A stretch of DNA of 64,000 nt from Candidatus Nomurabacteria bacterium (GTDB lineage Bacteria > Patescibacteriota > Minisyncoccia > Phycocordibacterales > UBA9973): positions 2,134-66,133 of the forward strand of contig CALRAE010000002.1 in NCBI GenBank assembly GCA_943350445.1. The letters run 5' to 3'. Both the position numbers and the translations under genes were made by a program. Shown piece after piece: positions 6,159-60,502 of the stretch (position 1 is the stretch's first letter; every line of letters starts with the position of its first letter). The notes below the pieces were generated by a model. That model did no database searches. It was not told the DNA's origin and saw nothing but the letters and a program-made list of their open reading frames with translations.

Positions 6159-7976
6159 ATGAAAATTTCTTACAATTGGCTTAAATGGTACGTGCCCGAT
6201 GTTCCAACTGCAGATAAACTCGTAGATATTTTTAATTATCATCTGTGTGAAGTTGAGAGTATTGAAAAAAGAGAAGACGGAGATATAATTCTTGATTTAA
6301 AAATATTACCAAATCGTGCGCATGACCTCCTTTCTCATCAAGGAGTGGCTCGAGAGCTTGCTTCACTTTTGAATATTGCATACGTTGATCCAACGCCGAA
6401 ATATAAAATTCCGGAATCCAAAACAACTAAACTAGAAGTAAAAATTGATACAGGAAACTGCCGTCGTTACATGGGTAGAATAATCAAAAATGTGAAGGTC
6501 GGACCAACACCCGACTGGGTGGTGCAACATTTAGCATCAATAGGTCAAAGAAGTATAAATAACATAGTAGATGCGGCAAACATCGTCATGTTCGACTGTG
6601 GACAGCCAACGCATGCTTTTGATCTAGATAAAGTTCAGGGTGGAGTAGTAGTGAGAGAAGCAAAAGACGGAGAGGCTCTGAACACACTTGATAACAAAGC
6701 AGTAACTTTTAAAAATTCCAATGTCATTATTGCTGATTCTAAAAATACTCTCGCAATTGCTGGAATCAAGGGTGGGAAAATAGCAGAGGTTGATAATAAT
6801 ACAAAAAATATAATTCTAGAATGCGCTAATTTCGACTCGATATCTGTGCGTAAAACTGCTCAAGCCTTAAATATTTTTACAGACGCTCGAAAACGTTTTG
6901 AGAACGATCTATCTCCAGAATTAGCTCCATATGCTATGCGAGAGCTATCTTCTTTAATTTTTGAGATGTGTCCTGAGGCAACTTTTGAAGATATCGTGGA
7001 TATATATCCAAAGAAACAAGAATCAAGAAAGCTTTCTTTTTCTACCGATAGAGTTTCAAAAATTTTGGGTTTGAAAGTTTCCGTAGATGAGATAAAAGAT
7101 ATTTTAAAGAGATATTTGTTTGAGTATGCAGAAAAAGCAGGGAAGTTTGAGATTGTGGTGCTAACAATGCGCCTCGATTTAACTATTGAAGAAGATATGG
7201 CAGAAGAAATAGTCCGAATCCTTGGATATGACAAGGTTAAAGGAGATATTCCAAAGATAAATTTTAAACCGCAGGTAAATAAAACTCGGGCAAAGATAAT
7301 GTGGGCGAGGAATAAACTGCTGGCTGAGGGATATAGCGAGGCCATGACATATGCTTTTTGCAATAAAGGGGAAGTGGAAGTGCAAAATAGCGCTTCAGAC
7401 AAAAAGTTCTTGAGGACTAATCTGTCGGACGGATTAAAAGAAAGCATTAAGCTCAATCAATTGAATGCTCCATTTTTGGGAAGTGATAAAGTTCAAGTTT
7501 TTGAAATTGGCACTGTTTTCAAAAAATCTGGCGAAGAAATGCATGTGGCTTTTGGAGATAAAAAGGGGGTTAAAGAGATGAAGCTAGATGAATTTATTTC
7601 ACCACCTCGCCTTTCAGGCTCTCCTCCTCAGAAAGGAGGAGAGGAATTTCCTCCCCAATTTGGTAAGGAGGGGGCAGGGGGTGGTAATTTCAAAATGTGG
7701 TCTCTATTTCCTTTTATCGCCCGTGATGTGGCTGTGTGGGTGCCGGAGAATATAAAAAGTGCGGAAGTCCTAAAAGTCATAAAAGAAAATACAGGGGATA
7801 TGGTTATCCGCGGGCCGGAACTTTTTGATGAATTCAAGAAAGATGGGAAAGTTTCCTATGCGTTTAGAATGGTTTTCCAGTCGTATGACAGGACTCTGAC
7901 AGATGCAGAAACAAACGAAATAATGGCAAAAATAACTAGTAAGATTAAAGAAAATAACGGTTGGCAAGTGAGGTAG
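6159..7976 (+). CDS. pheT: Phenylalanine--tRNA ligase beta subunit, short form lacking the N-terminal tRNA-binding domain, with an in-frame G/P/E-rich insertion
   Basis: B3/4 and B5 regions (DLTIEEDMAEEIVRILGYDKV). C-terminal FDX-ACB segment (FPFIARDVAVWVPENI). Insert SPPRLSGSPPQKGGEEFPPQFGKEGAGGGNFK coincides with the family B element. Confidence 0.8.
   Translation: MKISYNWLKWYVPDVPTADKLVDIFNYHLCEVESIEKREDGDIILDLKILPNRAHDLLSHQGVARELASLLNIAYVDPTPKYKIPESKTTKLEVKIDTGNCRRYMGRIIKNVKVGPTPDWVVQHLASIGQRSINNIVDAANIVMFDCGQPTHAFDLDKVQGGVVVREAKDGEALNTLDNKAVTFKNSNVIIADSKNTLAIAGIKGGKIAEVDNNTKNIILECANFDSISVRKTAQALNIFTDARKRFENDLSPELAPYAMRELSSLIFEMCPEATFEDIVDIYPKKQESRKLSFSTDRVSKILGLKVSVDEIKDILKRYLFEYAEKAGKFEIVVLTMRLDLTIEEDMAEEIVRILGYDKVKGDIPKINFKPQVNKTRAKIMWARNKLLAEGYSEAMTYAFCNKGEVEVQNSASDKKFLRTNLSDGLKESIKLNQLNAPFLGSDKVQVFEIGTVFKKSGEEMHVAFGDKKGVKEMKLDEFISPPRLSGSPPQKGGEEFPPQFGKEGAGGGNFKMWSLFPFIARDVAVWVPENIKSAEVLKVIKENTGDMVIRGPELFDEFKKDGKVSYAFRMVFQSYDRTLTDAETNEIMAKITSKIKENNGWQVR
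7598..7692. repeat. Family B palindromic element, composite copy, in frame inside pheT. CTCCTCCTcagaaAGGAGGAG plus CCTCCCCaatttggtaAGGAGGGGG, with outer arms TCACCACC / GGGGGTGGTAA
   Basis: Nested perfect palindromes seen directly. The GGGGGTGGTAATT tail is shared with the mnmA copy. Confidence 0.65.
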
Positions 7977-12704: not shown

Positions 12705-12779
12705 ATCGCGCTTAGACCTTAGGCAATAGGCCCTAGCATAGAGCTAAAGCCTAGTACCTAGAGCCTAACGCCTAAACAA

Positions 12780-13724: not shown

Positions 13725-14438
13725 TTGATTTTGCAAAATCACATGATTCAATTTTCAAATTTTGAGAAAAAAATAAAAATAATCTTTAAAGACAAAAATC
13801 TTTTGCAACAGGCTTTTATTCACCGTTCATATATAAATGAAAATCCATCGACCAATTTATCACACAATGAAAGGCTTGAATTTTTGGGTGATGCGGTACT
13901 CGAGCTAGTCGTCACAGATTTCTTGTATAAAAAATATCCTACATACACAGAGGGGGAACTAACGGCTCTGAGGTCTGCGCTAGTCAATGCTGTTATTATT
14001 TCTGAAGTTGCGACAGATCTAGGCATGAATGACTATCTGCTTTTATCTAAAGGCGAAACAAAAGACAAAGGTAAAGCGCGATCATATATTTTAGCTAATA
14101 CTTTTGAGGCATACATAGGAGCTTTGTACTTGGATCAAGGCATCGAAATAGTTGGTAAGTTTATAACTAAAACTCTTTTGCCGAAGACCGGAGAAATAGT
14201 TTCAAAGAAGCTCTGGCGCGATGCAAAATCCCTCGTGCAGGAAAAGGCGCAAGAATTTGTAAATGTCACTCCAGCATACAAGGTTCTCTCTGAATCTGGC
14301 CCTGACCATGACAAGCATTTCAATGTCGGTATCTACTTTGGTTCTACACTTGTAGGCGAAGGCAAGGGTCAATCCAAGCAAGAAGCAGAACAAAAAGCTG
14401 CTGAGTCTGCCCTAAAAGCTAAAAATTGGCTTGATTAG
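13725..14438 (+). CDS. rnc: Ribonuclease III
   Basis: Signature ERLEFLGDAVLELVV. C-terminal dsRBD. Confidence 0.85.
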   Translation: MILQNHMIQFSNFEKKIKIIFKDKNLLQQAFIHRSYINENPSTNLSHNERLEFLGDAVLELVVTDFLYKKYPTYTEGELTALRSALVNAVIISEVATDLGMNDYLLLSKGETKDKGKARSYILANTFEAYIGALYLDQGIEIVGKFITKTLLPKTGEIVSKKLWRDAKSLVQEKAQEFVNVTPAYKVLSESGPDHDKHFNVGIYFGSTLVGEGKGQSKQEAEQKAAESALKAKNWLD

Positions 14439-44329: not shown

Positions 44330-45651
44330 TGAATTTTAAAATAGAAAAAAAATTAAAAAATAGTTTGGGTCGGGTGGGGGTTCTCACAACTTCACACGGA
44401 ATAATACAAACTCCCGCTTTTGTGGCAGTGGGCACCAAGGCTACTATAAAATCCTTAAATCCTGAACAGGTAAAAGATGCTGGCACACAAGTAGTGCTAG
44501 GCAATACCTATCATTTATATTTACAACCCGGAGATGAAATAGTCCGCGGGGCGGGCGGTATCGGTAAATTTATGAATTGGAGTGGGCCGACAATGACAGA
44601 CTCTGGTGGCTTTCAAGTTTTTTCTTTGGGTGCGGCTTATGGTAAACAAATTTCAAAGATAACTAAAATAACTGATCCATCTCTACTTATTCCAGAACGT
44701 TTCGATGATTCTGATGCTCCCAGGTTGGCGAAAATTGGGCAAGATGGGGTTTCTTTTAAATCACACTTGGATGGTTCTATTCATTACATCACTCCAGAGA
44801 AATCAATTCAGATTCAGCATAATTTGGGCGCGGATATAATTTTTGCATTTGACGAATGCACCAGTCCGACAGAAGATTTGAAATATCAAGAAGAAGCCCT
44901 CGAGCGGACACACCGATGGGCAGAGAGGAGTTTAGATGAACACAAGAAATTGGAAGAGTTAAAAAACATGGAAGAAGTGAAAAATAAAGCAGATTCTTCC
45001 TTTTTTGGGTCGCTGTCTACGGGTGCTCCCGTAGCGCTGCCTCTCAGCCCGTCGGCTTGCGAGACACCCAAAAAAGAAAAATCTGCTGACTTTTCACAAG
45101 CGCTATTCGGCATCGTCCAAGGTGGACGAGATGAGGCTCTACGAAAAAAATCAGCAAAGTTTATTTCTAGTCTAGATTTTGATGGGTTTGGTATTGGGGG
45201 TTCATTTGCAAAAGAAGACATGTCGACGGCGGTGAAATGGGTAAATGAAATTTTGCCCGAAGAAAAGCCTCGACACCTCCTCGGCATCGGTGAGCCTGAA
45301 GATTTATTTATGGGGATTGAAAATGGAGTAGATTTATTTGACTGCGTAGCTCCGACTAGACTTGGAAGAAATGGAACTTTGTACACTAAAAATGGGAAAA
45401 TTATAATCATGAATCGACAATTTAGAGAAGATTATTCTCCCATTGAGCGGGATTGTGCCTGCTATTCTTGCCAAAACTATACAAAAGCCTACATTGCGCA
45501 CCTTTTTCACGGCAAAGAAATGCTTGCGGGCACATTGGCTTCGATACATAATTTATATTTTATAGTCAATCTAGTGAAGAAAATAAGGCAGTCAATTTTG
45601 GACGATAATTTCTTCGAATTTAAAGAAGAATTTCTAAAAGAGTATCTATAG
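44329..45651 (+). CDS. tgt: Queuine tRNA-ribosyltransferase with a ~60-aa low-complexity GC-rich insertion
   Basis: TPAFVAVGTKATIKSL. GNTYHLYLQPG. C-terminal Zn site CACYSCQNY..H. Insert at about nt 44940..45110. Confidence 0.85.
   Translation: MNFKIEKKLKNSLGRVGVLTTSHGIIQTPAFVAVGTKATIKSLNPEQVKDAGTQVVLGNTYHLYLQPGDEIVRGAGGIGKFMNWSGPTMTDSGGFQVFSLGAAYGKQISKITKITDPSLLIPERFDDSDAPRLAKIGQDGVSFKSHLDGSIHYITPEKSIQIQHNLGADIIFAFDECTSPTEDLKYQEEALERTHRWAERSLDEHKKLEELKNMEEVKNKADSSFFGSLSTGAPVALPLSPSACETPKKEKSADFSQALFGIVQGGRDEALRKKSAKFISSLDFDGFGIGGSFAKEDMSTAVKWVNEILPEEKPRHLLGIGEPEDLFMGIENGVDLFDCVAPTRLGRNGTLYTKNGKIIIMNRQFREDYSPIERDCACYSCQNYTKAYIAHLFHGKEMLAGTLASIHNLYFIVNLVKKIRQSILDDNFFEFKEEFLKEYL
45008..45070. 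repeat. GC-rich insert inside tgt containing the palindrome CTACGGGtgctCCCGTAG (family C)
   Basis: Seen directly at 45018..45034. Local GC is about 65%, against about 38% background. Confidence 0.5.
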
Positions 45652-45690
45652 GGTTACCACCCCTAGCCCCTCCTTGATTAAGGAGGGGAG
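45652..45690. repeat. Family B element, intergenic copy, abutting the tgt stop codon: GGTTACCACCCCtagCCCCTCCTTGattaAGGAGGGG
   Basis: Nearly identical to the copy at 45951..45999. Reverse orientation relative to the pheT/mnmA copies. Confidence 0.65.
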
Positions 45691-45767
45691 GACACGGGAG
45701 TTATCCCCACTTTTCCTTACCCGACATATATATTATTGATATAATGTAGATATTTCCGAGTAAAAAA

Positions 45768-48700
45768 GTGAAACAAAAAAATAAATTTTTTAGGGCATAT
45801 ATAAAAAGGTTTTCACTTGGACTCTTTGTCTTTGCTTTTTTTGTTTTTCTACCTACTTCTAGTGTATTTGCAGCAGCTACAAAAGACTCATTAATGAATG
45901 CTTTTAAGAGTTATGTAACTGTACTTACTACACCTGTTAACAATCAAGTAGTTACCACCACCCCACCTCCGGCACCCCTCCTTGATCAAGGAGGGGAAAG
46001 GGGTCCTAATCCTGTTTCTATTCCTGTAACACCACCACCCCCTTCGTCAAGCTCAGGGCAGGAAATAGTCTACGTCACACCACAACCTACAATAAACGAA
46101 GCAACCCTTCTTTCTGCTTTAAGAAACCTTCTCTCAAAAAAAGAAATTGCTAACAAATTACGTGGGTCACAAGGAGCACAAGGTATCCAAGGCCTTCAGG
46201 GTCCACAAGGAGCATCAGTTACACCAGCACCAAATCCTATCTCTTATCTACCTGTTCATATCTCATACCCTAATCCTTCTGTAAACTTCTCTGGTGGTGC
46301 TTCTGCAAACATAGCTAATCTATCTTCAAACATTCTCACTGCTACTACTTCTAATATTACTACTTTGAATGTGGCTGGAACTTCTACTCTTGCAGGAACT
46401 CTAAATGTCACTGGTGCCGTCACTCTTCCGTCTTCTGGAAGTTTAACTTCGCCTTTGGTTATTGGTTCTACATCTGCTAATGGCACTTTGACCTTAGAAG
46501 GTAACAACACTACAGGCAATACCGCAACTAATGCAAACTTAATATTCAAGGTTGGTAATAATGCAGCAACTACTGCGATGACTATTTTGAATAATGGCAA
46601 TGTGGGGGTGGGGACGACGACTCCAGGAAGATTTGTCGATTTGTTTTATACGGAGCCAGGTGCAACTCGTGCTTACAATTACCTACGTTTGACTGCTAAT
46701 AGTGCTGTGGGAGCTCATCATGGTACATCTGTCATCGAAGGATTTTATAAGGATAGTGGAAACGGTAATAGTTTTACTCACAGCCAGATCGCATTGGAGG
46801 GGACATCAGTCGGCAATGGTGCTGTAAATTCTATTGGTGAAATCTTGTTTTTGACAAAGTCAGATACAGGTAGCGCGTCAGCATTGCCTACTGAAAAGAT
46901 GCGTGTGACTAGTGATGGAAAATTACTTATTGGAACCAATCGAAATGGTACTGAGGATGGTGATTTGAGTTTCTATGGTATTTCCAATAGACTCATTTCT
47001 ATAGGATCAAATCCAAGTACCAATGTGGAAGGTAAAGACTTAACTATTAGGGCAGGAAATCCTTACCCGTCATCCACCAATCTAACAGGAGGGACTCTCA
47101 ATCTTTCAGGTGGAAAATCATCTGGCACAGGGACATCACAAATTCAATTCCAGACTGCTACCGCAGGTTCTACAGGAAACTCTGTTGTGACCCCAACAAC
47201 TAAAATGACAATTTTAGGTTCCGGCAACGTGGGGATTGGGACGACGAGTCCAGGTCTCCCACTCCAAGTTGTTGGTCACGTAAATGAATTTATTGCAGAT
47301 TTTTTATATAGCTCCTCTGGCTCAGGCGTTGCAGTTGGTGGTGGGGTTAATGGCACAACCGCATGGGTAGCGAGTGATTATCTTGGTGCGACTGAACCAA
47401 AACTACATTTAGCAACCTGGTCTAATCGTGCTAATGCAAATGGTATCACTATTGATACCTCTGGCAACGTCGGGATCGGGACGACGAATCCTAGTATCGG
47501 TTCGTGGGGTAAGGCTTTGACCATTCTTAATAACGGCTTGAACACTACCGCAGCCGCACTTGAAATTGCTTCTTTTGGACTCACAGCAGGAGACGGAGAA
47601 AGCGCTCTTAGTTTTGTAAATGGTGTTGATCTAGGTAATCGTTGGGAGGTGGGACGAATTCAGGCAATTCGTGGTGCTACCGACAATGGTTCAGGTCATA
47701 TTGCGCTATCTACACGAGTGAGTGCAACAGGAGGAGGTTTGGCTGAAGTGATGCGCTTGACTGACGATGGCAAAGTCGGTATCGGCGACACTACTCCAGA
47801 TTATAAATTAGACATAGAGACAGATGTTGCTTCGTATGTTGCCAACTTCTTCAATGATGGCAATCTTGCCACCCGTAGCGGTATCCTTATCCAAGGAGGC
47901 TTAGATGATCACACTGCAGCCGGACCATCCACTCTCATTGGTTTCCAAGATGGTGACGGTGGTGCTGTCGGATCAATCACTTTTGGTTCATCTGCCACAG
48001 CATACAACACTACATCAGACCAAAGATTAAAGAATTTAGTAAACGAAAATACTACTTCATCTCTCAATATCTTAAATCAAATAAAAATTCATGATTTCAC
48101 ATGGAAAGAAGATGCTAACCATAATCTATACACTGGAATCTTCGCTCAAGAGCTCTATGATGTTTATCCTCACGCAATTACTAAACCAATCAATGATGCA
48201 GACAACTGGATGGTGGATTATTCTAAACTCACCCCTGTAATGATCGCATCTATCCAAGAACTAGATCTAAACTTAAATAGTATCGCGGGCACTATCACTC
48301 CACTTGCTGGCTCAGCCAATGAATCTTTCGTGAATGCTTTCTTCGCAAACATTTTTTCCAAGGTTGATAATTGGATGGCGGATCGGGCGAATGGGATAGG
48401 AGATTTCTTTGCAGACAAAGTACATACAAAGCAAATCTGTGTTGCGAAAGCTGATGGCACAGAATTTTGTGCAGATGGTGACCAACTTCAAGCTATGGCA
48501 GGGGGATCAGGAACACCTCCAGCGCCAACCCCTACTCCAGCTCCAGTCCCCGCACCATCATCCGACACCACTCCACCAGTCATCACCCTCACAGGTGAAT
48601 CTACAATAACTTTAAACGTGGGAGACACATATACTGAACAAGGAGCCACAGCCACAGATAATGTAGACACAGGAGTAGCTGTCATAATCAGTGGTTCTGT

Positions 48701-48800
48701 AGATACATCTGTTGCAGGCACATACACTATCACTTATAATGCCACTGACACAGCAGGGAATAATGCGATAGAGGTGGCGAGGAGTGTAGTGGTTCAATAA
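45768..48800 (+). CDS. Large secreted fibre protein (GTG start). Collagen-like G-x-y triplets, repeated NVGIGTT(S/N)P beta-helix-like motifs, a peptidase-S74-type intramolecular chaperone domain, a Pro/Thr linker and a C-terminal Ig-like (DUF5011-type) domain
   Basis: Signal/TM N-terminus. GSQGAQGIQGLQGPQGAS. At least 4 NVGIGTTxP repeats. S-D-x-R-L-K motif TSDQRLKNL followed by ..GIFAQELYDVYPHAI..VDYSKLTPVMIASIQEL. (PT)n linker. C-terminus ITLTGESTITLNVGDTYTEQGATATDNVD..VAGTYTITYNATDTAGN. Confidence 0.6.
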   Translation: MKQKNKFFRAYIKRFSLGLFVFAFFVFLPTSSVFAAATKDSLMNAFKSYVTVLTTPVNNQVVTTTPPPAPLLDQGGERGPNPVSIPVTPPPPSSSSGQEIVYVTPQPTINEATLLSALRNLLSKKEIANKLRGSQGAQGIQGLQGPQGASVTPAPNPISYLPVHISYPNPSVNFSGGASANIANLSSNILTATTSNITTLNVAGTSTLAGTLNVTGAVTLPSSGSLTSPLVIGSTSANGTLTLEGNNTTGNTATNANLIFKVGNNAATTAMTILNNGNVGVGTTTPGRFVDLFYTEPGATRAYNYLRLTANSAVGAHHGTSVIEGFYKDSGNGNSFTHSQIALEGTSVGNGAVNSIGEILFLTKSDTGSASALPTEKMRVTSDGKLLIGTNRNGTEDGDLSFYGISNRLISIGSNPSTNVEGKDLTIRAGNPYPSSTNLTGGTLNLSGGKSSGTGTSQIQFQTATAGSTGNSVVTPTTKMTILGSGNVGIGTTSPGLPLQVVGHVNEFIADFLYSSSGSGVAVGGGVNGTTAWVASDYLGATEPKLHLATWSNRANANGITIDTSGNVGIGTTNPSIGSWGKALTILNNGLNTTAAALEIASFGLTAGDGESALSFVNGVDLGNRWEVGRIQAIRGATDNGSGHIALSTRVSATGGGLAEVMRLTDDGKVGIGDTTPDYKLDIETDVASYVANFFNDGNLATRSGILIQGGLDDHTAAGPSTLIGFQDGDGGAVGSITFGSSATAYNTTSDQRLKNLVNENTTSSLNILNQIKIHDFTWKEDANHNLYTGIFAQELYDVYPHAITKPINDADNWMVDYSKLTPVMIASIQELDLNLNSIAGTITPLAGSANESFVNAFFANIFSKVDNWMADRANGIGDFFADKVHTKQICVAKADGTEFCADGDQLQAMAGGSGTPPAPTPTPAPVPAPSSDTTPPVITLTGESTITLNVGDTYTEQGATATDNVDTGVAVIISGSVDTSVAGTYTITYNATDTAGNNAIEVARSVVVQ
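45951..45999. repeat. Family B element, copy in frame inside the fibre gene (encodes ..TTPPPAPLLDQGGERG..)
   Basis: GTTACCACCaCCCCAcctccggcaCCCCTCCTTGatcaAGGAGGGG, a close match to 45652..45690. Confidence 0.65.
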
Positions 48801-49565: not shown

Positions 49566-49576
49566 CTTTCATTTTG

Positions 49577-50019
49577 TTGTAGGTGTCTATAAGCCGAATT
49601 TTGTCCCAATTTTGTTCACCACAGGTGATTCAAAATTGAGGACCCTGAGGATTTGTCGAAGGGTTCCCTCGACGTGGCTCGGGATGCTCAATTTTGTAAT
49701 TGCCTATGGCAAACAAAATTGGCAGATAACAATTTATCTAGGTCTAAAATTACTCTTAGACTCAAGCGATTCTTCCAAGCTTGCGCTTGGACACGATCTT
49801 GCACAGGGGTAAGGATTTAGCCGTTTCACTCTGATGTTACCACCAGACTATTCCATGGATTGCTCGATGGAACCCTAGCATCTCTGCATCAGCGTCTCTG
49901 CTCGCACCTATATATCACTATATGTGGGCGTTACCCACTACCTTTCTCCCTGATAAATCAGGGCTGTGTTCGGACTTTCCTCCCTATGAAATCATAGAGT
50001 AGCTATCCGACACCTACGC
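49577..50019 (-). ncRNA. rnpB: RNase P RNA (bacterial type)
   Basis: Minus-strand read has a P1 helix (GUAGGUGUC at the 5' end, GACACCUAC at the 3' end). It has P4 5' strand GGAGGAAAGUCCG, then ..GGUAACGCC.., then GGUGCGAGCAGAGACGC (P10-12-like), ..UGGUAACA..GGCUAAAUCC.. and P4 3' strand ACAAAAUUCGGCUUAUAG. TSS position fits the promoter. Confidence 0.8.
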
Positions 50020-50205: not shown

Positions 50206-51021
50206 TTGCGCGGCATGATTTCGCTAAATCATATGAAAAAAGATACTTCTAAAAATAATTCCGGTGAGACTTCGTGGGGCTCTGTAGCAGGGTGGTATGA
50301 CGAGCTCTTAGAAGAATCAGACGATTCCTTTCAGGCGAAGGTTATTTTACCGAACCTGCTCCGAGTTCTTAATGTTAAGGCGGGTATGAACATAATTGAT
50401 ATTGCTTGTGGGCAGGGATATTTTAGTCGGGCGCTTGAAAATGCTGGGGCGCAGGTGACTGGTGTGGATATATCAAGTGAACTTATAAAAAAAGCGCAAG
50501 AACGTTCTCCTAAAAATATCAGTTTTTGTGTCGCCGAAGCGGACAAACTCTCTTTTTCAAAAGATGCTAGTTATGATGCAGCCATAATTATTTTAGCTAT
50601 TCAAAATATTAAAAATTTCGCTGGCGCGCTAGCTGAGTCCGCGCGGGTTCTCAAACCAAAAGGCAAGCTTGTGATTGTTTTAAATCATCCAGCATTTCGA
50701 ATTCCGCAAAATTCTAGTTGGGATTGGGATGTAAAGAAGGGGAGGCAGTATCGCCGAATCGATTCTTATTTAAAAGAATATCAGATAGAGATAGATATGA
50801 CCCCCGGGGAAAAAGATCCATCCAAGAAAAAGAAAACACTTTCATTTCATCGACCACTTCAATCTTATTTTAAATTCTTAAACAAAGCCGGATTTGCTGT
50901 CTCGGGTCTAGAAGAATTAATTTCTCACAAAAAGAGTCAAAAAGGTCCGCGCTCAATAGAAGAGGACAGGATACGTAAAGAAATTCCAATGTTTCTGATG
51001 CTAGAAGCTAAAAAGCTTTAA
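50206..51021 (+). CDS. Class I SAM-dependent methyltransferase
   Basis: Motif I IIDIACGQGYFSRAL. Acidic post-I residue. Methyltransf_11/25-like. Confidence 0.65.
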   Translation: MRGMISLNHMKKDTSKNNSGETSWGSVAGWYDELLEESDDSFQAKVILPNLLRVLNVKAGMNIIDIACGQGYFSRALENAGAQVTGVDISSELIKKAQERSPKNISFCVAEADKLSFSKDASYDAAIIILAIQNIKNFAGALAESARVLKPKGKLVIVLNHPAFRIPQNSSWDWDVKKGRQYRRIDSYLKEYQIEIDMTPGEKDPSKKKKTLSFHRPLQSYFKFLNKAGFAVSGLEELISHKKSQKGPRSIEEDRIRKEIPMFLMLEAKKL

Positions 51022-51050
51022 CCTATAGCAAGGACGGTCCTTGCTATAGG
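51022..51050. other. Perfect 14-bp-arm hairpin CCTATAGCAAGGAC-g-GTCCTTGCTATAGG immediately after the methyltransferase stop
   Basis: Read directly. No T-tract. Confidence 0.5.
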
Positions 51051-51080
51051 TGGGCCTTGTGAAAAATTGGCAAAAAAACA

Positions 51081-51112
51081 GCGCGGATACCTTTCGGTCC
51101 GCGCGTCTTTGT
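51081..51112 (+). terminator. Terminator-like hairpin GCGCGGA..TCCGCGC followed by a T-rich tract
   Basis: Read directly. Confidence 0.45.
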
Positions 51113-51129
51113 GATGGATGGATGCCTTT

Positions 51130-51567
51130 TCAGGTCTTATTCCAAAATAACAGATAGACTGGTCGGTTCGGAACCGACTCAACCATCTCGTAGCCCGACT
51201 TGTCCTTCTTGAGCTTCAAGAAAGCGAGCTTGTCGCCGCCCCAGCTGAACGCCAGCGGGAGCTCAATCGTCTTGGTAAACCGGTCAGGGTTGTCCATGAC
51301 ATTTCCGACACCTGCCGGATGAAGTATTGACCCATTAGCGCGCGACAGTTTGTCGTGTTTGGTCATCAGTTCGAAGGCTTCTGTTGGTGAGCTGACCTTG
51401 ACCAACAAGTAGCCGCTATCGATGATGACCGACGGCAACTCCTGGTTGGTGTTGTTCACGACGGCCAAAGTGGCGGTCTGGTGATGGTTGGATTGCTGTC
51501 CCCACTGGTGCCCCAAGTAGAGGCCGAAGACCAGCAGAGCGAAACCGACTGTCAGTGTTTTCTTCAT
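51130..51567 (-). CDS. GC-rich (~52%) secreted hypothetical protein. Likely start MKKTLTVGFALLVF (signal peptide); the ORF track extends to 51618
   Basis: Composition differs from neighbours. Signal-peptide-like N-terminus. Adjacent to tRNA-Tyr. Confidence 0.4.
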   Translation of the reverse strand: MKKTLTVGFALLVFGLYLGHQWGQQSNHHQTATLAVVNNTNQELPSVIIDSGYLLVKVSSPTEAFELMTKHDKLSRANGSILHPAGVGNVMDNPDRFTKTIELPLAFSWGGDKLAFLKLKKDKSGYEMVESVPNRPVYLLFWNKT

Positions 51568-51580
51568 GGTGTTTTGTTTC

Positions 51581-51656
51581 TGTAACCAACTTTGTTTATT
51601 AGCCTTGGTTACATACAACTTTCTGCATCTTTATACAAAAAATTGTTTGTAACCAA
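51581..51656. promoter_or_regulatory. Operator-like inverted repeat TGTAACCAA-N16-TTGGTTACA plus a third half-site TGTAACCAA upstream of the GC-rich secreted-protein gene
   Basis: 9-bp perfect IR at 51581..51589 / 51606..51614. Direct copy at 51648..51656. Confidence 0.45.
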
Positions 51657-51801
51657 AGCTTTTGAAAGAACATACTTATACCTGTATTATATACTCTTTT
51701 GAGCTAAAAGTCAATAGCAAATTAAACTCTTGTAAAATAAGGCTATTTAGAGGTTGTAGAAAAGATGCAAAAAAGAGTTTTTTATGTTAATTTATCTACA
51801 T

Positions 51802-51887
51802 GCGTCGATGGTAGAGTGGTCAAATACGACACGCTGTAAACGTGTTGCCTTCGGGCTTCGGGGGTTCGAATCCCTCTCGACGCACCA
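51802..51887 (+). tRNA. tRNA-Tyr (anticodon GUA), long variable arm, CCA encoded
   Basis: Manual fold: acceptor GCGUCGA/UCGACGC, anticodon stem-loop ACACG-CUGUAAA-CGUGU, variable arm GCCUUCGGGC, T-loop GGGGG-UUCGAAU-CCCUC, 3' ACCA. Confidence 0.8.
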
Positions 51888-51897
51888 AAAGAATTCT

Positions 51898-52566
51898 CTA
51901 GAAGAATCTTACTTTCATTAATTTTACGATTCCTTTGTATCCGTCTTTCCAGTTGATATGTTTTCCTTCCTCAAAACTTCGCGGCATGTATTGAATAGAT
52001 ATTTCTTCGATATCGATTTTCTTTTTTAAAATTTTTGCAATTATTTCCGCTTCTATTTCAAAGCCGTTTGATTCCAAGTTGAGTGAGTTCATAAGTTCAC
52101 GCGGTATGATTTTATAACAGGTGTATATATCAGAAATATCAGACGAAAATAATATGTTACAAGTCAAAGATAGTACCTTATTACCGATTCTATTTAATAT
52201 GTATCCATCTTTTCCACTTCTCTTTCCATAAATTACAACTTTTTTATTTTTCACTATTTTCCAGAGTTCATAGAGGTTTTTTGGATCATATTCGAGATCC
52301 GCATCTTGGATAGCGACATAGTCTCCTCTCGTTTTTTCTAGAGCACTTCGTATGGATCTTCCTTTTCCATAATTTTTTTCGTGATGCACTGTGCGTATAT
52401 GAGGATCTTTTATTCTTGAAATTATGTTGTATGTTTCATCTGTGGACCCATCATTGACTAAAATTATTTCATAATCTTCCCCTTTGAATGCTTGTTCCAC
52501 TCCAAGTACCACTTGCTCTAAAGTTTTTTCTTCATTATGTGCAGGAATTATGATCGATAGTTTCAT
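51898..52566 (-). CDS. Family-2 glycosyltransferase, polyprenol-phosphate sugar transferase type (Dpm1/GtrB/ArnC-like)
   Basis: MKLSIIIPAHNEE. ILVNDGSTDET. DAD motif (IQDADLEYDP). 222 aa, soluble. Confidence 0.7.
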   Translation of the reverse strand: MKLSIIIPAHNEEKTLEQVVLGVEQAFKGEDYEIILVNDGSTDETYNIISRIKDPHIRTVHHEKNYGKGRSIRSALEKTRGDYVAIQDADLEYDPKNLYELWKIVKNKKVVIYGKRSGKDGYILNRIGNKVLSLTCNILFSSDISDIYTCYKIIPRELMNSLNLESNGFEIEAEIIAKILKKKIDIEEISIQYMPRSFEEGKHINWKDGYKGIVKLMKVRFF

Positions 52567-54146
52567 TATTTTATCTTAAACATTTCTTTTGGTAGTTCGT
52601 ATTTTTTTATAATTTCTTTGTTTTCTTCATTTCGATAAAGAAATATGATCGTCTGATCATCGACGTATATCGGCGCCCAGAGTGGGTCACTTACACGAGA
52701 TATGAGAAAAGTCTGTGACCATGGTGTGTAATCCAGTCTATAAAAAAATATAGCATTAAATTTATTTTTCTTCAATTCTTGTTCCCAAATATCTTCTCGT
52801 TCTTGCATTGGCACGTATATGTTTTTAAAAAATTCTTTTGGGTAGGCTTCTGGTCGATTGTCCACGAACACACGCTCTTTTGGGAAAAATCCGAAAATCA
52901 TAAGTCCACCAATATCGTAATTATTGAAAAATGGTCCATGTATTTTGTTGTTTTTTATAAATTCAATTGGAGCTAATTGTTTTTTATTTATTCCAATTCC
53001 AAAATCACGATTCCACGGCAATTTTGTAGAAAACTGAAACATCGTTACTGTGATAAGAATAAGAGAAAACACTGCGTAAAAAATTACTTTAACGTCAACA
53101 TCTGTCTTGTAGTTTATCTTGTTCTCTAGTATTTTTTTAATTACGGTTAGATTGTAAACTAGGAGAGGGAGAGACAATAAGGCAAAAGCAGGAATATGGC
53201 GAATGCCGAAATATCCGAGTACTGCAAAGACTAGTGCGATGACTGAAAGTGCTAGTAAGAAACTTTTTCTTTGTTTTATTATGATGACAATAGAGGTTGT
53301 AATAATAAGTAAGAGTATAATTTTATACCAAAAAAATTCAGGATTAATAAAAGATAAATGTTCTAGAAAATTTATGGATTGATTTTCTACAATCCTATAT
53401 CCGTAATTTTGGAAAATAGTAAATGGATATAAGGCACCTTTGATCCCATAAGGAGTGATACACATCGCTATGAAGCTCGATAGTAATATTATTCCCAGTT
53501 TTTTTACTTTCTCCTTATTTTTTAGAAATAAGGCTTCAATTAAAAATATGCCGATCAAAAATGGTCCAAAAATAAAATAAATATGCATATTTGCCCAAAT
53601 TAGTTCTAGAAATGGTATGAGCCAAATCATACGATATGAGATCTTATCTTTAGAGTATCTATAAAGTAGATATAAAAAAACTGCGAGAAAAAAATAACTC
53701 AATCCTTCAGGTCTGATTTCTGTACGCCCAGCAATGAGAGGTATAAGAAAAACGCTTGTGAAAAACAAAATACTTTTATCAGCTTCATCGCTCATTACCA
53801 CCAGTGTGAAAATAAGAGCTCCTAATACAAGTAAAAAATAGAAAATAGACAACCCATTGAAACCAAGAATGCTAAAAATAAGATAAATGATTATACCGCT
53901 TCCCCAATGGTGATTTATAAACGGAAAATCAGGATGTGTGTAAGAAAATAAATTTGTATAAAGTATATCTTTTTTTGAAATGTCATACTGGGCGTTATTT
54001 AGGAGAATATTGCCGTTTGCAATATGTCGTCCAATGTCTGAAGTGGGTAAGTTTATTTTATGGAATGAAAATAAAACCAAGAAAAGTGAAAGCAAGATCA
54101 AAATTATCCATAAAGATTTGTTCATGATTTTTAAAAATTGTAGCAT
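52566..54146 (-). CDS. Polytopic membrane protein, probable GT-C-fold (ArnT/PMT-like) glycosyltransferase partner of the upstream GT2
   Basis: 526 aa with at least 10 predicted TM segments. Start-stop overlap with the GT2 gene. Confidence 0.45.
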   Translation of the reverse strand: MLQFLKIMNKSLWIILILLSLFLVLFSFHKINLPTSDIGRHIANGNILLNNAQYDISKKDILYTNLFSYTHPDFPFINHHWGSGIIIYLIFSILGFNGLSIFYFLLVLGALIFTLVVMSDEADKSILFFTSVFLIPLIAGRTEIRPEGLSYFFLAVFLYLLYRYSKDKISYRMIWLIPFLELIWANMHIYFIFGPFLIGIFLIEALFLKNKEKVKKLGIILLSSFIAMCITPYGIKGALYPFTIFQNYGYRIVENQSINFLEHLSFINPEFFWYKIILLLIITTSIVIIIKQRKSFLLALSVIALVFAVLGYFGIRHIPAFALLSLPLLVYNLTVIKKILENKINYKTDVDVKVIFYAVFSLILITVTMFQFSTKLPWNRDFGIGINKKQLAPIEFIKNNKIHGPFFNNYDIGGLMIFGFFPKERVFVDNRPEAYPKEFFKNIYVPMQEREDIWEQELKKNKFNAIFFYRLDYTPWSQTFLISRVSDPLWAPIYVDDQTIIFLYRNEENKEIIKKYELPKEMFKIK

Positions 54147-54254
54147 ATATCTAGAATAAATATGTTTTCAACTAAAAACTTGTTGTTTTTATAAAAGTAT
54201 GTTATTATAAATTTAGTTAAAAACAGGCCTTCGGGCTTTTTTGTTTAACCCAAT

Positions 54255-59320: not shown

Positions 59321-60502
59321 GTGATTTTACTAAATCAAATAAATACAATGAAAAGAAAGAAAGTTTTTGTGGGGATGTCAGGGGGTGTTGACTCTGCAGT
59401 TAGTGCAGCACTACTTAAAAAAGATGGATGTGAAGTTATCGGGGTTTTTATCAAGACTTGGCATCCGGACTTTTTAGAGTGCAATGAAGAAGAAGAGCGT
59501 AGGGACGCCATGCGTGTGGCGGCTTTTTTAGATATTCCATTTTTAACTTTTGACTTAGAAGACGTTTACAAAAAAGAAGTGGCGGATTATATGATACGTG
59601 AATATAAAGCAGGGAGGACGCCTAACCCAGATGTGATGTGCAATAAAGAGGTGAAATTTGGTGCCTTTCTTAAAAAAGCTATTTTGATGGGGGCTGATTT
59701 TGTAGCGACAGGGCATTATGCGCAAAATGCAAATGAAAACTTCAAAAATTCTCCCACCTTCGCCCTCGGAGACAAGAGGACAGGGGACCGACACGGCTCC
59801 TTGAATTCTTCAAGTTTTCATTTGCAAAAAGGTGTTGACCCTTCCAAAGACCAAAGTTATTTCCTATGGACACTCACTCAAGAGCAATTAAAGAAAATTT
59901 TGTTTCCTGTCGGGCATTTAAAAAAGACTGAAGTCCGCAAGTTGGCGAAGAAATTTAAATTACCAGTAGCAGAAAAGAAAGATAGTCAGGGGATATGCTT
60001 TTTGGGTGCGGTGGATCTAAAAGAATTCTTAAAGCATTATATTAAGTCGAAACAAGGCGAGGTGCAAAATGAGAAAGGAGAAAAAATTGGTTTTCATGAT
60101 GGTGTAGTTTTTCATACACTCGGCGAACGTCATGGTTTTATTATCACTAAGAAAAGTCCGAATGACGGACCACACTATGTGGTTAGTAAAGATATTGCAA
60201 AAAATATATTAGTAGTTTCTCAGAAATCTCCCCTCCTTGTCGAGGAGGGGGTGGGGGGTGGTAATTCAAAAAAGAATTCCTTATCTATTATTGATACGAA
60301 TTGGATTTCTGAAATTCCAGAACCAAACAAAAATTACACAGCTCAGATACGGTATCATGGTGAATTTTTATCATGTAAAGTAGATTGTGCAACATCGGAT
60401 GTTGCACAATTGGTTTTTAAAAAACCAGTTTTGGTGGCTTCTGGGCAGTCTGTTGTGGCCTACGACGGTGATATTTGTCTTGGTGGTGGGGTTGTTGTAT
60501 GA
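59321..60502 (+). CDS. mnmA: tRNA 2-thiouridine(34) synthase MnmA, carrying two in-frame palindromic insertions
   Basis: PP-loop VGMSGGVDSAVSA. ATGHYA. KDQSYFL. C-terminal beta-barrel. Inserts at 59729..59825 (family A) and 60228..60266 (family B). Confidence 0.85.
   Translation: MILLNQINTMKRKKVFVGMSGGVDSAVSAALLKKDGCEVIGVFIKTWHPDFLECNEEEERRDAMRVAAFLDIPFLTFDLEDVYKKEVADYMIREYKAGRTPNPDVMCNKEVKFGAFLKKAILMGADFVATGHYAQNANENFKNSPTFALGDKRTGDRHGSLNSSSFHLQKGVDPSKDQSYFLWTLTQEQLKKILFPVGHLKKTEVRKLAKKFKLPVAEKKDSQGICFLGAVDLKEFLKHYIKSKQGEVQNEKGEKIGFHDGVVFHTLGERHGFIITKKSPNDGPHYVVSKDIAKNILVVSQKSPLLVEEGVGGGNSKKNSLSIIDTNWISEIPEPNKNYTAQIRYHGEFLSCKVDCATSDVAQLVFKKPVLVASGQSVVAYDGDICLGGGVVV
59729..59825. repeat. Family A palindromic element, copy 2, in frame inside mnmA. 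Same core as the pheS copy, with a copy-specific 23-bp flanking IR (2 mismatches)
   Basis: Flanks GCAAATGAAAACTTcAAaAATTC / GAATTCTTCAAGTTTTCATTTGC. The core matches 5584..5649 with few substitutions. Confidence 0.7.
60228..60266. repeat. Family B element in frame inside mnmA: CTCCCCTCCTTGtcgAGGAGGGGGtGGGGGGTGGTAATTC
   Basis: Perfect palindrome plus the GGGGTGGTAATT tail shared with the pheT copy. Encodes ..LVEEGVGGGNSK.. Confidence 0.65.

Follow-up and report, generated by a model that had tools for sequence, protein, structure and literature searches.

A long leader hairpin upstream of an orphan gene beside tRNA-Tyr as a candidate RNA control element in a Patescibacteria genome

Our analysis of a 64-kb stretch of DNA from a Candidatus Nomurabacteria bacterium (hereafter, the window) revealed a 27-bp hairpin in the predicted 5' leader of an orphan gene located beside tRNA-Tyr. 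This hairpin is best read as a modest candidate RNA control element, and as neither a repressor site nor part of a tRNA-integrated island. The explanation that we favor overall, with a probability of roughly 0.55, is that of a self-contained expression module under posttranscriptional control through the leader hairpin; the module would consist of a promoter, a structured leader of ~113 nt, an ORF of 145 codons, and a terminator, all placed between tRNA-Tyr and a methyltransferase gene. To our knowledge, gene regulation has hardly been studied in Patescibacteria (CPR), and we know of no Patescibacteria-specific cis-regulatory RNA that has been catalogued. The locus offers a concrete, testable candidate, namely, a conserved promoter followed by a 27-bp leader hairpin with a built-in re-pairing element, which, if our explanation is true, would represent a way in which reduced genomes control accessory, possibly surface-exposed, proteins.

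Results

The orphan gene (51130..51567, minus strand) encodes a protein of 145 aa with a predicted N-terminal signal peptide or membrane anchor and a predicted alpha/beta domain of ~100 aa. The initial annotation described it as a signal-peptide protein of no recognisable family, and our searches agree: an N-terminal hydrophobic segment is present, and the protein matched nothing in Pfam, NCBIfam, PHROGs, PADLOC, or the PDB sequences. Its family, which has four members among ~15 billion proteins, is among the rarest seen and is fast-evolving. In structure-based homology searching, Foldseek against the PDB was negative, and a weak C-type-lectin-like fold match (TM 0.3-0.4) stayed below confident thresholds, making membership uncertain; the proteins that carry this C-type lectin-like/Link-module fold (i.e., invasin D5, LYVE-1, Ly49, and poxvirus CTL proteins) have no sequence similarity to the orphan protein. 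We infer that the protein may be exported and have a surface-binding function. The gene is also compositionally distinct, as originally stated: GC content (0.534) and GC3 (0.726) of the ORF, relative to a window mean GC of 0.383, place it in the top 1.3% of 438-nt windows. More specifically, GC3 is 0.19-0.46 in the other genes versus 0.73 in the orphan gene, and a GC3 excess was found in all lineages that carry the gene.

Upstream of the ORF and on the same strand lies a sigma-70-type promoter (51686..51714, minus strand) that matches the consensus at 11 of 12 positions, with TTGACT at 51714-51709, a 17-nt spacer, and TATAAT at 51691-51686. Its TATTGACTTTTA core and the -10 box are kept at three further loci carrying homologues of the gene (L003, L008, and L010), i.e., in four lineages including the window. 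Transcription would start near 51679 according to this promoter prediction, giving a predicted leader of ~113 nt. Such a leader is exceptional in this genome, because none of the 47 genes has a Shine-Dalgarno-like tetramer and, in 15 of the 47, the -10 box ends 3-16 nt ahead of the start codon; the genome appears to lack Shine-Dalgarno sites and to use largely leaderless mRNAs. The missing Shine-Dalgarno site was accordingly rejected as a special trait of the orphan gene, its absence being genome-wide. The early leader contains a GTTCTTT box (51665..51671, minus strand) 14 nt downstream of the -10 box, and GTTCTT is found 13-20 nt past the -10 box in the window, in L003, in L008, and in the leader of an unrelated orphan gene from another genome (L016). 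Within 310 kb, the composite of promoter plus GTTCTT occurred only at these leaders. We also considered the GUUCUUU box as an anti-start-codon clamp and discarded the idea, since duplexes between the box and the start region had no energy advantage over shuffles (fractions 0.28-0.92).

The initial annotation had reported a perfect 9-bp inverted repeat plus a third copy upstream of the gene and had interpreted these as the operator of a dimeric regulator. The repeats are there: the window has exactly three copies of TGTAACCAA, at 51581 (+), 51605 (-), and 51648 (+), all inside 51581-51656, against a chance expectation of 0.65, and at least three copies were seen in 1 of 100 shuffles. The spacer of the inverted repeat measures 15 nt rather than the 16 nt given originally. 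Because the conserved promoter stands upstream of them, all three copies fall inside the predicted leader. Copy A (51581..51589, minus strand) reads UUGGUUACA in the mRNA and lies 13 nt 5' of the AUG. Copies B and C are the core of a longer inverted repeat that had been overlooked, with 28-nt arms spanning 51601-51660, whose complementarity as DNA is only 82%. On the minus strand, the same segment (51601..51660) forms the leader hairpin, with a 5' arm (51660-51633) containing copy C (UUGGUUACA), an AAAG loop, and a 3' arm (51628-51601) containing copy B (UGUAACCAA), so that B and C make up the base of the stem. The hairpin has 27 pairs and a folding energy of -33 kcal/mol, including four G:U pairs and one conserved A:A mismatch. 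Apart from this A:A, every non-Watson-Crick position of the stem is a G:U in the sense strand, and for that reason the hairpin is far more stable as sense than as antisense RNA. Consistently, the window leader folded at -35.5 kcal/mol (z -6.55) in the sense versus -23.1 (z -2.31) in the antisense orientation, and the corresponding values were -38.5 (z -8.26) versus -23.7 for L003 and -39.8 (z -4.57) versus -29.6 (z -1.33) for L008. The leader of L010, a family member from a GC-rich organism, showed no significant structure (z -0.2).

Comparison of the window with L003 indicates how the stem has been kept. Of the 27 pairs, 22 are invariant, three carry one-sided wobble changes, one shows a compensatory exchange (G:C to A:U), and the terminal pair is the only one missing; the covariation thus comes from two distinct sequences and one compensatory pair, for which a shuffle control was uninformative. 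Nucleotide identity is 77-83% in the hairpin versus 55-60% in the CDS. At the corresponding leader position, the L008 orthologue carries a hairpin whose sequence is unrelated. Strand asymmetry alone is no proof of function, because one other hairpin in the window (12705-12774) is likewise strongly asymmetric and yet antisense to its flanking genes. Part of the G:U excess could also stem from transcription-coupled mutation bias. Weighing these observations, we consider it likely that the locus acts as a sense-RNA leader structure rather than as a DNA operator.

The operator interpretation, in which a dimeric transcription factor would bind the TGTAACCAA-N15-TTGGTTACA inverted repeat together with the third copy and repress through an elongation block or DNA looping, appears improbable. 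As in MarR/TetR-type operators, a perfect 9-bp inverted repeat lies close to a promoter (<110 bp downstream of it), these are the sole three copies in 64 kb, and a MarR gene is found near tRNA-Tyr in the related locus L008. What distinguishes the site from such operators is that neither its spacing nor its symmetry is conserved, that no regulator is adjacent and no second site exists in the DNA searched, and that the repeats are embedded in a longer structure with 28-nt arms that forms much better as sense RNA. Specifically, the TGTAACC/GGTTACA arms of B and A stand 26 nt apart (centre to centre) in the window versus 22 nt in L003, a 4-nt shift, and the C-B distance differs by a further 1 nt; the C half-site of L003 is TTGGTTGCA opposite TGTAACCAA, which breaks the DNA symmetry and keeps a G:U pair in the sense RNA; L008, the very locus with the MarR gene, has none of the repeats; and the site has no HTH gene next to it in the window. 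A regulon was equally elusive: the 9-mer had no further copy in the window or in 20 of the other related loci, and the motif was not found elsewhere in 310 kb of related loci, JGI metagenomes, or viral contigs. A search with the 20-mer AGAAAGTTGTATGTAACCAA returned only the already known L003-type contig from JGI metagenomes, and no match in viral contigs. For annotation in practice, this means that an operator should be called from a perfect promoter-proximal inverted repeat only after its pairing has been examined for strand asymmetry (G:U).

Within the sense-RNA reading, a ligand-sensing riboswitch, an RNA thermometer, or a transcription attenuator would also account for a long structured leader in which copy B can pair with C or with A, but we regard all three as very unlikely. 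At gathering thresholds, Rfam recognized only tRNAs, and the leader matched no family; a permissive search (E <= 1) with the hairpin gave only chance-level matches to miRNA precursors and to the FourU thermometer (23.9 bits, E 0.12). The structure is an almost perfect duplex that has neither a junction nor a pocket, and the start codon is not sequestered. Because the hairpin sequences of the orthologues differ completely, a ligand pocket does not fit, and attenuation was dismissed since no U-run follows either the long or the alternative hairpin. A T-box, suggested by the neighboring tRNA-Tyr and a UAC in the repeat, was set aside as well, there being no Rfam T-box match and too short a leader.

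A relic of a mobile element (i.e., a MITE or IS end, an integron attC site, or a REP-like palindrome) could leave a long imperfect inverted repeat beside a small ORF of odd composition, and is the explanation to which we give the least credence. The element is single-copy in the 64 kb and in all collections searched, is conserved through pair-preserving changes, and lies between promoter and ORF rather than 3' of a cassette, with no transposase or integron integrase nearby. The RYYYAAC/GTTRRRY core sites are absent by eye, and on these grounds (single copy, no integrase, no core sites) both attC and MITE were rejected.

Downstream of the gene, we identified an intrinsic terminator (51071..51104, minus strand; hairpin at 51081-51104) composed of the stem GCGCGGACC-GAAA-GGUAUCCGCGC followed by UGUUUUUUUG. 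Its 8-bp stem contains six G:C pairs and precedes a T-run (TGTTTTTTTG) on the minus strand, as expected of a Rho-independent terminator. It corresponds to the second terminator hairpin of the initial annotation; in L003, the gene is likewise followed by a homologous terminator (GCGCGACCGAAAGGCCGCGC plus T-run), and in L008 by an analogous one. The perfect palindrome recorded on this side does exist, with arms of 15 nt instead of 14 nt (51021-51035/51037-51051). It abuts the methyltransferase stop codon, has no second copy in the window, and gives folding energies of -31.0 (plus strand) and -28.1 (minus strand); L008 lacks it and has a single bidirectional terminator instead. We read the palindrome (51021..51051) as a second or bidirectional terminator hairpin between convergent genes, and what had been called unusually strong flanking hairpins are, in our view, ordinary terminators between such genes.

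On the other side, the reported tRNA-Tyr neighbor is present 234 nt from the start codon of the orphan gene. This tRNA-Tyr (GTA; 51802..51887, plus strand; 60.1 bits) is of type II, with a long variable arm and an encoded CCA, and is transcribed divergently from the orphan gene, an arrangement shared by three lineages. It is identical over the aligned 77 nt in L003 and L008. Immediately upstream, a conserved block at 51765..51793 (plus strand; ATGCAAAAAAGAGTTTTTTATGTTAATTT) contains TGCAAAAAAG..TTTTRTGTTA, which is kept in the window, L003, L008, and most of 16 related genomes; although it is below the promoter-scan threshold, we read this block as the putative promoter of tRNA-Tyr itself.

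Comparing the tRNA-Tyr flank across relatives confirmed a patchy distribution: the orphan gene is missing from all 16 related species in which this tRNA-Tyr core is shared, and is thus accessory. Our data support only part of the proposal of a small acquired island at the tRNA. A tRNA-adjacent position, anomalous GC, and patchy occurrence are traits held in common with tRNA-associated islands, and a recent acquisition, with the GC-rich gene as cargo integrated at tRNA-Tyr, would agree with the GC3 excess, with the absence of the gene in the 16 related species, with a homologue under the same promoter core in a 55% GC organism (L010), and with the sharp drop in window-L008 nucleotide identity at the edges of the module. 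Integration at the tRNA is nonetheless quite unlikely. The gene stands on the 5' side of the tRNA, whereas the segment that varies between relatives is on the 3' side (a GT2 gene and a membrane protein gene in the window, a MarR-efflux operon in L008); no integrase is encoded within 10 kb on either side, the only recombinase of the contig being >50 kb away; and no second copy of the 23-nt tRNA 3' end was found, even with <=3 mismatches allowed, i.e., there is no att duplication. Moreover, the tRNA-Tyr-orphan gene pair recurs in L003, and the close relative L008 has the same order of tRNA-Tyr, orphan gene, and methyltransferase gene, its BipA and methyltransferase being 92% and 78% identical to those of the window. 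An 11-nt direct repeat, TCTAGAAGAAT (50907 and 51897), was examined as a pair of island borders and rejected, since one copy is inside the conserved methyltransferase gene and its length is near chance for 1.1 kb.

Another account of origin, which we hold only tentatively, is that of an exchangeable cassette, in which divergent leader, ORF, and terminator alleles from a GC-richer donor pool would be swapped by homologous recombination between the conserved tRNA/promoter and the methyltransferase gene. The window and L008 share ~80% nucleotide identity across the methyltransferase gene and 100% across the tRNA, and identity falls with sharp edges to ~45-50% in between; the orphan proteins are 38% identical versus 66-92% for their neighbors; and the GC3 excess recurs in all lineages. 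However, a fast-evolving surface protein next to neutral intergenic DNA could yield the same profile, the window allele is closest to that of L003, and no donor was identified. The cassette account concerns origin and is compatible with a mechanism acting through the RNA leader.

Discussion

Having favored a sense-RNA leader over a DNA site, we can outline how the three copies of TGTAACCAA/TTGGTTACA might act as RNA. Copies C and B would form the base of the 27-bp hairpin, and copy A, just 5' of the start codon, would pair with B only if C were unavailable. Copy A is a duplicate of the base of the 5' arm (copy C) and is able to pair with copy B. The long duplex may be a substrate for the genome's own RNase III, the gene for which (rnc; 13725-14438, plus strand) was recognized by Ribonucleas_3_3 (7.6e-37), by the dsRNA-binding domain dsrm (9.3e-15), and by its ERLEFLGD signature. 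Once the 5' arm had been cut away, the left-over 3' arm could pair with copy A in a short hairpin close to the newly formed 5' end, which would alter the stability and/or translation of the message in a cspA-like manner.

In-silico removal of the 5' arm is in part consistent with this scheme. In the window, it yielded a 9-bp B:A hairpin of -9.5 kcal/mol, which in a post hoc test was equaled by 0.35% of shuffled downstream sequences, and L003 keeps a 7-bp version (GGUUACA). More generally, the basal 3' arm refolded with a downstream segment, with post hoc shuffle fractions of 0.0035 for the window leader, 0.005 for L003, 0.025 for L008, and 0.018 for a second leader in the window, whereas refolding was not significant by the same post hoc test in the third leader of the window (p 0.088) or in L016 (p 0.21). 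We regard the specific RNase III refolding mechanism as a possible model with the odds against it.

Similar hairpin leaders precede the other GC-rich ORFs of the window and the unrelated orphan gene of L016. A 79-aa ORF at 21454-21693 had no homologues and is not called in the public annotation. A more speculative idea, which we think doubtful, is that the hairpin is one case of an undescribed leader class in Nomurabacteria-like Patescibacteria, tied specifically to compositionally foreign (GC3-rich) orphan genes. It would be a dedicated gate, probably dependent on RNase III, through which acquired genes are expressed or silenced. In members of such a class, a consensus promoter would be followed by a GUUCUUU box at ~8-15 nt of the transcript, by a G:U-rich hairpin of 20-30 bp, and by an A-rich spacer, in genomes that otherwise lack Shine-Dalgarno sites and have mostly leaderless mRNAs.

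Leader duplexes and 5'-proximal stem-loops that set mRNA half-life are known from the E. coli rnc and pnp leader hairpins and from the 5' stem-loop stabilizer of the ompA type. The hairpin described here starts at a distance of ~19 nt from the predicted 5' end, and without processing this is too far for it to protect that end directly; an autoregulatory link to RNase III or PNPase is not evident. The closest parallel is Staphylococcus aureus cspA, whose 113-nt 5' UTR hairpin is cut by RNase III, leaving a processed leader of 52 nt with a short 5' hairpin and an mRNA that is more stable and better translated (Lioliou et al. 2012, PMC3386247). The two leaders have no sequence similarity, and the gene behind ours encodes a predicted exported orphan protein rather than a cold-shock protein; moreover, because the genome appears to lack Shine-Dalgarno sites, freeing of the ribosome-binding site as in cspA cannot be the same step here. 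What the two systems share is a leader of ~113 nt (predicted here) dominated by a long hairpin and an RNase III encoded by the organism; a short hairpin near the new 5' end upon loss of the 5' part, predicted here in silico for some of the leaders, may be a further parallel; with 27 pairs, the duplex also has the ~20 bp or more expected of a cspA-type, RNase III-processed 5' UTR, its placement in the UTR following from the predicted promoter.

Predicted leader of the orphan gene

A promoter scan revealed TTGACT-17-TATAAT on the minus strand at 51714-51686, upstream of the orphan gene (51130-51567, minus strand) and matching the consensus at 11 of 12 positions. Given this placement, transcription is predicted to start near 51679, so that all three copies of the repeat TGTAACCAA would lie within a 5' untranslated region (UTR) of ~113 nucleotides (nt). 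These copies, at 51581(+), 51605(-), and 51648(+), are the only ones in 64 kb, where 0.65 are expected by chance. The initial annotation had described an inverted repeat plus a third copy at this place; both are present, with a spacer that measures 15 nt rather than 16 nt.

Copies C (51656-51648) and B (51613-51605) form the core of an inverted repeat with 28-nt arms (51601-51660), which shows only 82% complementarity when read as DNA. Its sense RNA forms 27 pairs, including 4 G:U, with one A:A mismatch. The predicted fold of the leader reached -35.5 kcal/mol in sense orientation (z = -6.55) versus -23.1 kcal/mol in antisense (z = -2.31). Likewise, the leaders of two other lineages with a family member, L003 and the close syntenic relative L008, gave -38.5 versus -23.7 kcal/mol (z = -8.26 and -3.40) and -39.8 versus -29.6 kcal/mol (z = -4.57 and -1.33), respectively. 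No significant leader structure was found on folding the fourth lineage, L010 (an organism of 55% GC). All four lineages retain the -10 box as well as the promoter core TATTGACTTTTA.

L003 carries the same hairpin as the window: 22 of the 27 pairs are invariant and three show one-sided wobble changes; a further pair has undergone a compensatory change (G:C to A:U), and only the terminal one no longer forms. Nucleotide identity is 77-83% in the hairpin versus 55-60% in the coding region; formal covariation statistics were uninformative, as only two distinct sequences exist. In L008, a hairpin of unrelated sequence occupies the equivalent position (21 pairs, including 4 G:U). The repeats had initially been read as the operator of a dimeric regulator. 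In L003, one half-site has become TTGGTTGCA, which is asymmetric as DNA yet still pairs through G:U in RNA, and the distance from B to copy A (51581-51589) differs from that in the window by 4 nt. As sense-RNA pairing is kept while DNA symmetry and spacing change, the operator reading is not supported, and these comparisons lead us to favor selection on sense-RNA structure over a fixed-geometry DNA operator. Control of the orphan gene by a structured mRNA leader is the best explanation of the data.

In three leaders (window, L003, and L008), the -10 box is followed by a GTTCTTT box. A test of whether this box pairs with the region around the start led us to reject such pairing.

Predicted leaders elsewhere in this and another genome

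None of 47 genes carries a GGAG, GAGG, or AGGA tetramer 4-18 nt 5' of its start (8.3% of random positions do), and in 15/47 a -10 box (at least 5/6 matches) ends 3-16 nt ahead of the start codon, versus 9% at random. The genome thus seems devoid of Shine-Dalgarno sites and rich in leaderless or near-leaderless mRNAs, a setting in which a leader of 113 nt is exceptional.

When the entire window was scanned with sliding folds, only three sense-specific long leader hairpins emerged, and these precede exactly its three ORFs of anomalous third-position GC (GC3). Besides that of the orphan gene (51601-51660, 27 pairs; GC3, 0.73), they comprise a 29-pair hairpin at 21365-21427 (-37.3 sense versus -29.4 antisense) ahead of a 79-aa ORF (21454-21693; GC3, 0.57), and a 29-pair hairpin with 6 G:U at 21930-21994 (-41.5 versus -25.2) ahead of a 327-aa ORF (22045-23028; GC3, 0.70). 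The latter two lie in a second GC-rich island (21261-23028) between RNase R and rpsP. The 79-aa ORF is uncalled and lipoprotein-like, and its leader ends in GGGAAACAAAAAACCACACATGAAAAAAC, resembling the end of the orphan-gene leader, AGAAACAAAACACCATGAAGAAAAC; the 327-aa ORF has 57% GC and a weak DUF5069 match.

The same layout was observed in an independent genome, a Patescibacteria MAG (JBBTYD010000003.1), at L016:2036-2688. There, TTGACA-17-TATAAT precedes a GTTCTTT box by 13 nt, and the hairpin comprises 21 bp, of which 4 are G:U (-28.7 sense, -15.0 antisense). The gene behind it is an unrelated orphan of raised GC3 (0.56) whose 163-aa product has no Pfam match. Within 310 kb, the composite of promoter and GTTCTT is confined to the orphan-gene leaders of the window, L003, and L008 and to that of L016. 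A wider leader class across these genomes is possible and merits a proper survey.

Flanks and origin of the gene

On the gene's strand, a GC-rich hairpin (51081-51104) followed by UGUUUUUUUG is homologous to the terminator behind the L003 gene and is the intrinsic terminator of the orphan gene; a terminator hairpin had been proposed here. The perfect palindrome also reported is present at 51021-51051, with arms of 15 rather than 14 nt. It is unique, abuts the methyltransferase stop codon, and is nearly equally stable on either strand; we take it for a second terminator, or a bidirectional one, of the two convergent genes. In L008, a single bidirectional terminator suffices.

A tRNA-Tyr(GTA) gene lies beside the orphan gene at 51802-51887(+), as first noted. 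Directly 5' of it, a block TGCAAAAAAG-N-TTTTRTGTTA (51765-51793), shared by most related tRNA-Tyr regions (L011-L026), probably serves as the promoter of this tRNA, whose transcription would then begin only a few nt ahead of the mature 5' end.

The initial annotation suggested an island acquired at this tRNA. Its view of the gene as compositionally distinct and accessory holds: GC is 0.534 (GC3, 0.726, far beyond the genomic range) in a window of 38.3% GC, and gene and promoter are absent beside tRNA-Tyr in 16/16 GTDB species with the common tRNA core. A homologue also occurs in a GC-rich organism. Synteny with L008 spans MnmA, YceG, DUF8128, sigma factor, BipA, tRNA-Tyr, the gene, and the methyltransferase, with protein identities of 92% (BipA), 87% (sigma factor), and 78% (methyltransferase) versus just 38% for the family protein; at the nucleotide level, identity drops with sharp edges from ~80% (methyltransferase) and 100% (tRNA) to ~45-50% over the module. 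However, the gene lies on the 5' side of the tRNA, neither a nearby integrase nor a repeat of the tRNA 3' end was found, and the divergent tRNA-Tyr/orphan-gene pair is kept in three lineages, i.e., two besides the window's. Comparison of the tRNA flank revealed patchy presence of the gene, and acquisition as a classical tRNA island is not supported. GC3 is raised in all orthologues (0.73, 0.63, and 0.53 versus ~0.3-0.4 in the hosts), which may reflect repeated cassette replacement from GC-richer donors or selection on composition.

The segment that truly sets the window apart from L008 lies 3' of the tRNA. Between tRNA-Tyr and BipA, the window (51888-54254, 31-33% GC) encodes a GT2 together with a 526-aa protein that spans the membrane several times and belongs to no family, and L008:5891-9589 an efflux operon (MarR, a 358-aa protein, YknX-like, MFS). 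An 11-nt perfect direct repeat TCTAGAAGAAT (50907-50917 and 51897-51907) brackets the methyltransferase 3' end, the orphan gene, and the tRNA; with one copy inside the conserved methyltransferase coding sequence, it was judged to be chance.

The encoded protein

An exhaustive HMMER search of 1.84 billion representatives recovered only three further members of this rare family (52, 42, and 41% identity), and word-indexed searches of 5.8 billion clusters returned the same four. The 145-aa protein, initially described as secreted, does have a hydrophobic N-terminal segment, MKKTLTVGFALLVFGLYLG, which, judged from sequence, would serve as a signal peptide or anchor the protein in the membrane. It is followed by a ~100-aa domain with conserved motifs GY-LI, L-PA--GN[VI]MD-P--F, and P[LI]AF. 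An AlphaFold2 model from the four sequences (pLDDT, 73; core, 85-94) gave no significant Foldseek match in the PDB, in agreement with the earlier view that no family is recognizable. The top BFVD match (E = 0.009; TM = 0.38), to a C-type lectin protein of a poxvirus, is consistent with a surface binding domain but is a weak lead. The protein has diverged faster than its neighbors, as would fit an exposed protein.

Other features of the contig

The contig corresponds to the metagenome contig k141_826318 (81.6 kb) of ENA ERZ27280223, an independent assembly from run ERR3719144. Relatives of its tRNA-Tyr place the lineage in Candidatus Nomurabacteria / Paceibacterota (Patescibacteria). In the gap that separates DUF192 from the methyltransferase and holds no ORF, 49574-50018(-) matches the full-length model of bacterial RNase P RNA class A (88.3 bits; E = 8.6e-27); default annotation missed it because the Rfam gathering score is 100. 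A ~27-bp hairpin of TAGGC/CTAGG-like words (12705-12774; minus -39.1, plus -24.4) lies between two plus-strand genes, an uncalled rpmF-like (L32) small ORF ending at ~12704 and a gene from 12780. Hairpins of the CCCCTCCTT..AAGGAGGGG type recur at 7602-7686, 45640-45717, 45941-46010, and 60222-60250, some within coding sequence, and are notable in a genome otherwise avoiding GGAGG 5' of genes. A 1,010-aa surface protein (45768-48800, plus; GC locally up to 49%) combines Peptidase_S74, a tail-fibre intramolecular chaperone, with a C-terminal Ig-like domain. Beyond the window's left end, the contig end (L031:102-5904) carries genes for RmuC, for a large serine recombinase of 528 aa, for an N6/N4 DNA methyltransferase, and for three proteins that fall in no known family; this could be a mobile element that has integrated, or a defence region.

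Proposed refolding of the leader and RNase III

When the 5' arm was deleted in silico, the basal 3' arm and a downstream segment paired as a 7- to 11-bp hairpin in the window, L003, L008, and the second window leader; in the window, this refold is UGUAACCAA-15-UUGGUUACA (-9.5 kcal/mol). In a shuffle test devised post hoc, with the pattern already seen, 0.35% (window), 0.5% (L003), 2.5% (L008), and 1.8% (second leader) of shuffled downstream segments matched the observed energy. The result was weaker for the third window leader (8.8%) and not significant for L016 (21%).

Attenuation and thermometer-type control are unlikely, because no U-run follows the long or the alternative hairpin and the predicted folds always leave the start codon free. 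A complete RNase III is encoded at 13725-14438. The refolding design, this gene, and the precedent of cspA led us to suggest that refolding set off by RNase III is the likeliest mechanism: the leader hairpin would be a probable RNase III substrate, and its cleavage would permit refolding through the built-in downstream element. We infer this cleavage, the transcription start site, and the direction of the effect. The best-documented analogue is Staphylococcus aureus cspA, in which RNase III cleaves a long hairpin within a 113-nt 5' UTR, as against a predicted leader of ~113 nt here, and the processed leader of 52 nt, with a short 5' hairpin, confers greater stability and better translation (PMC3386247).
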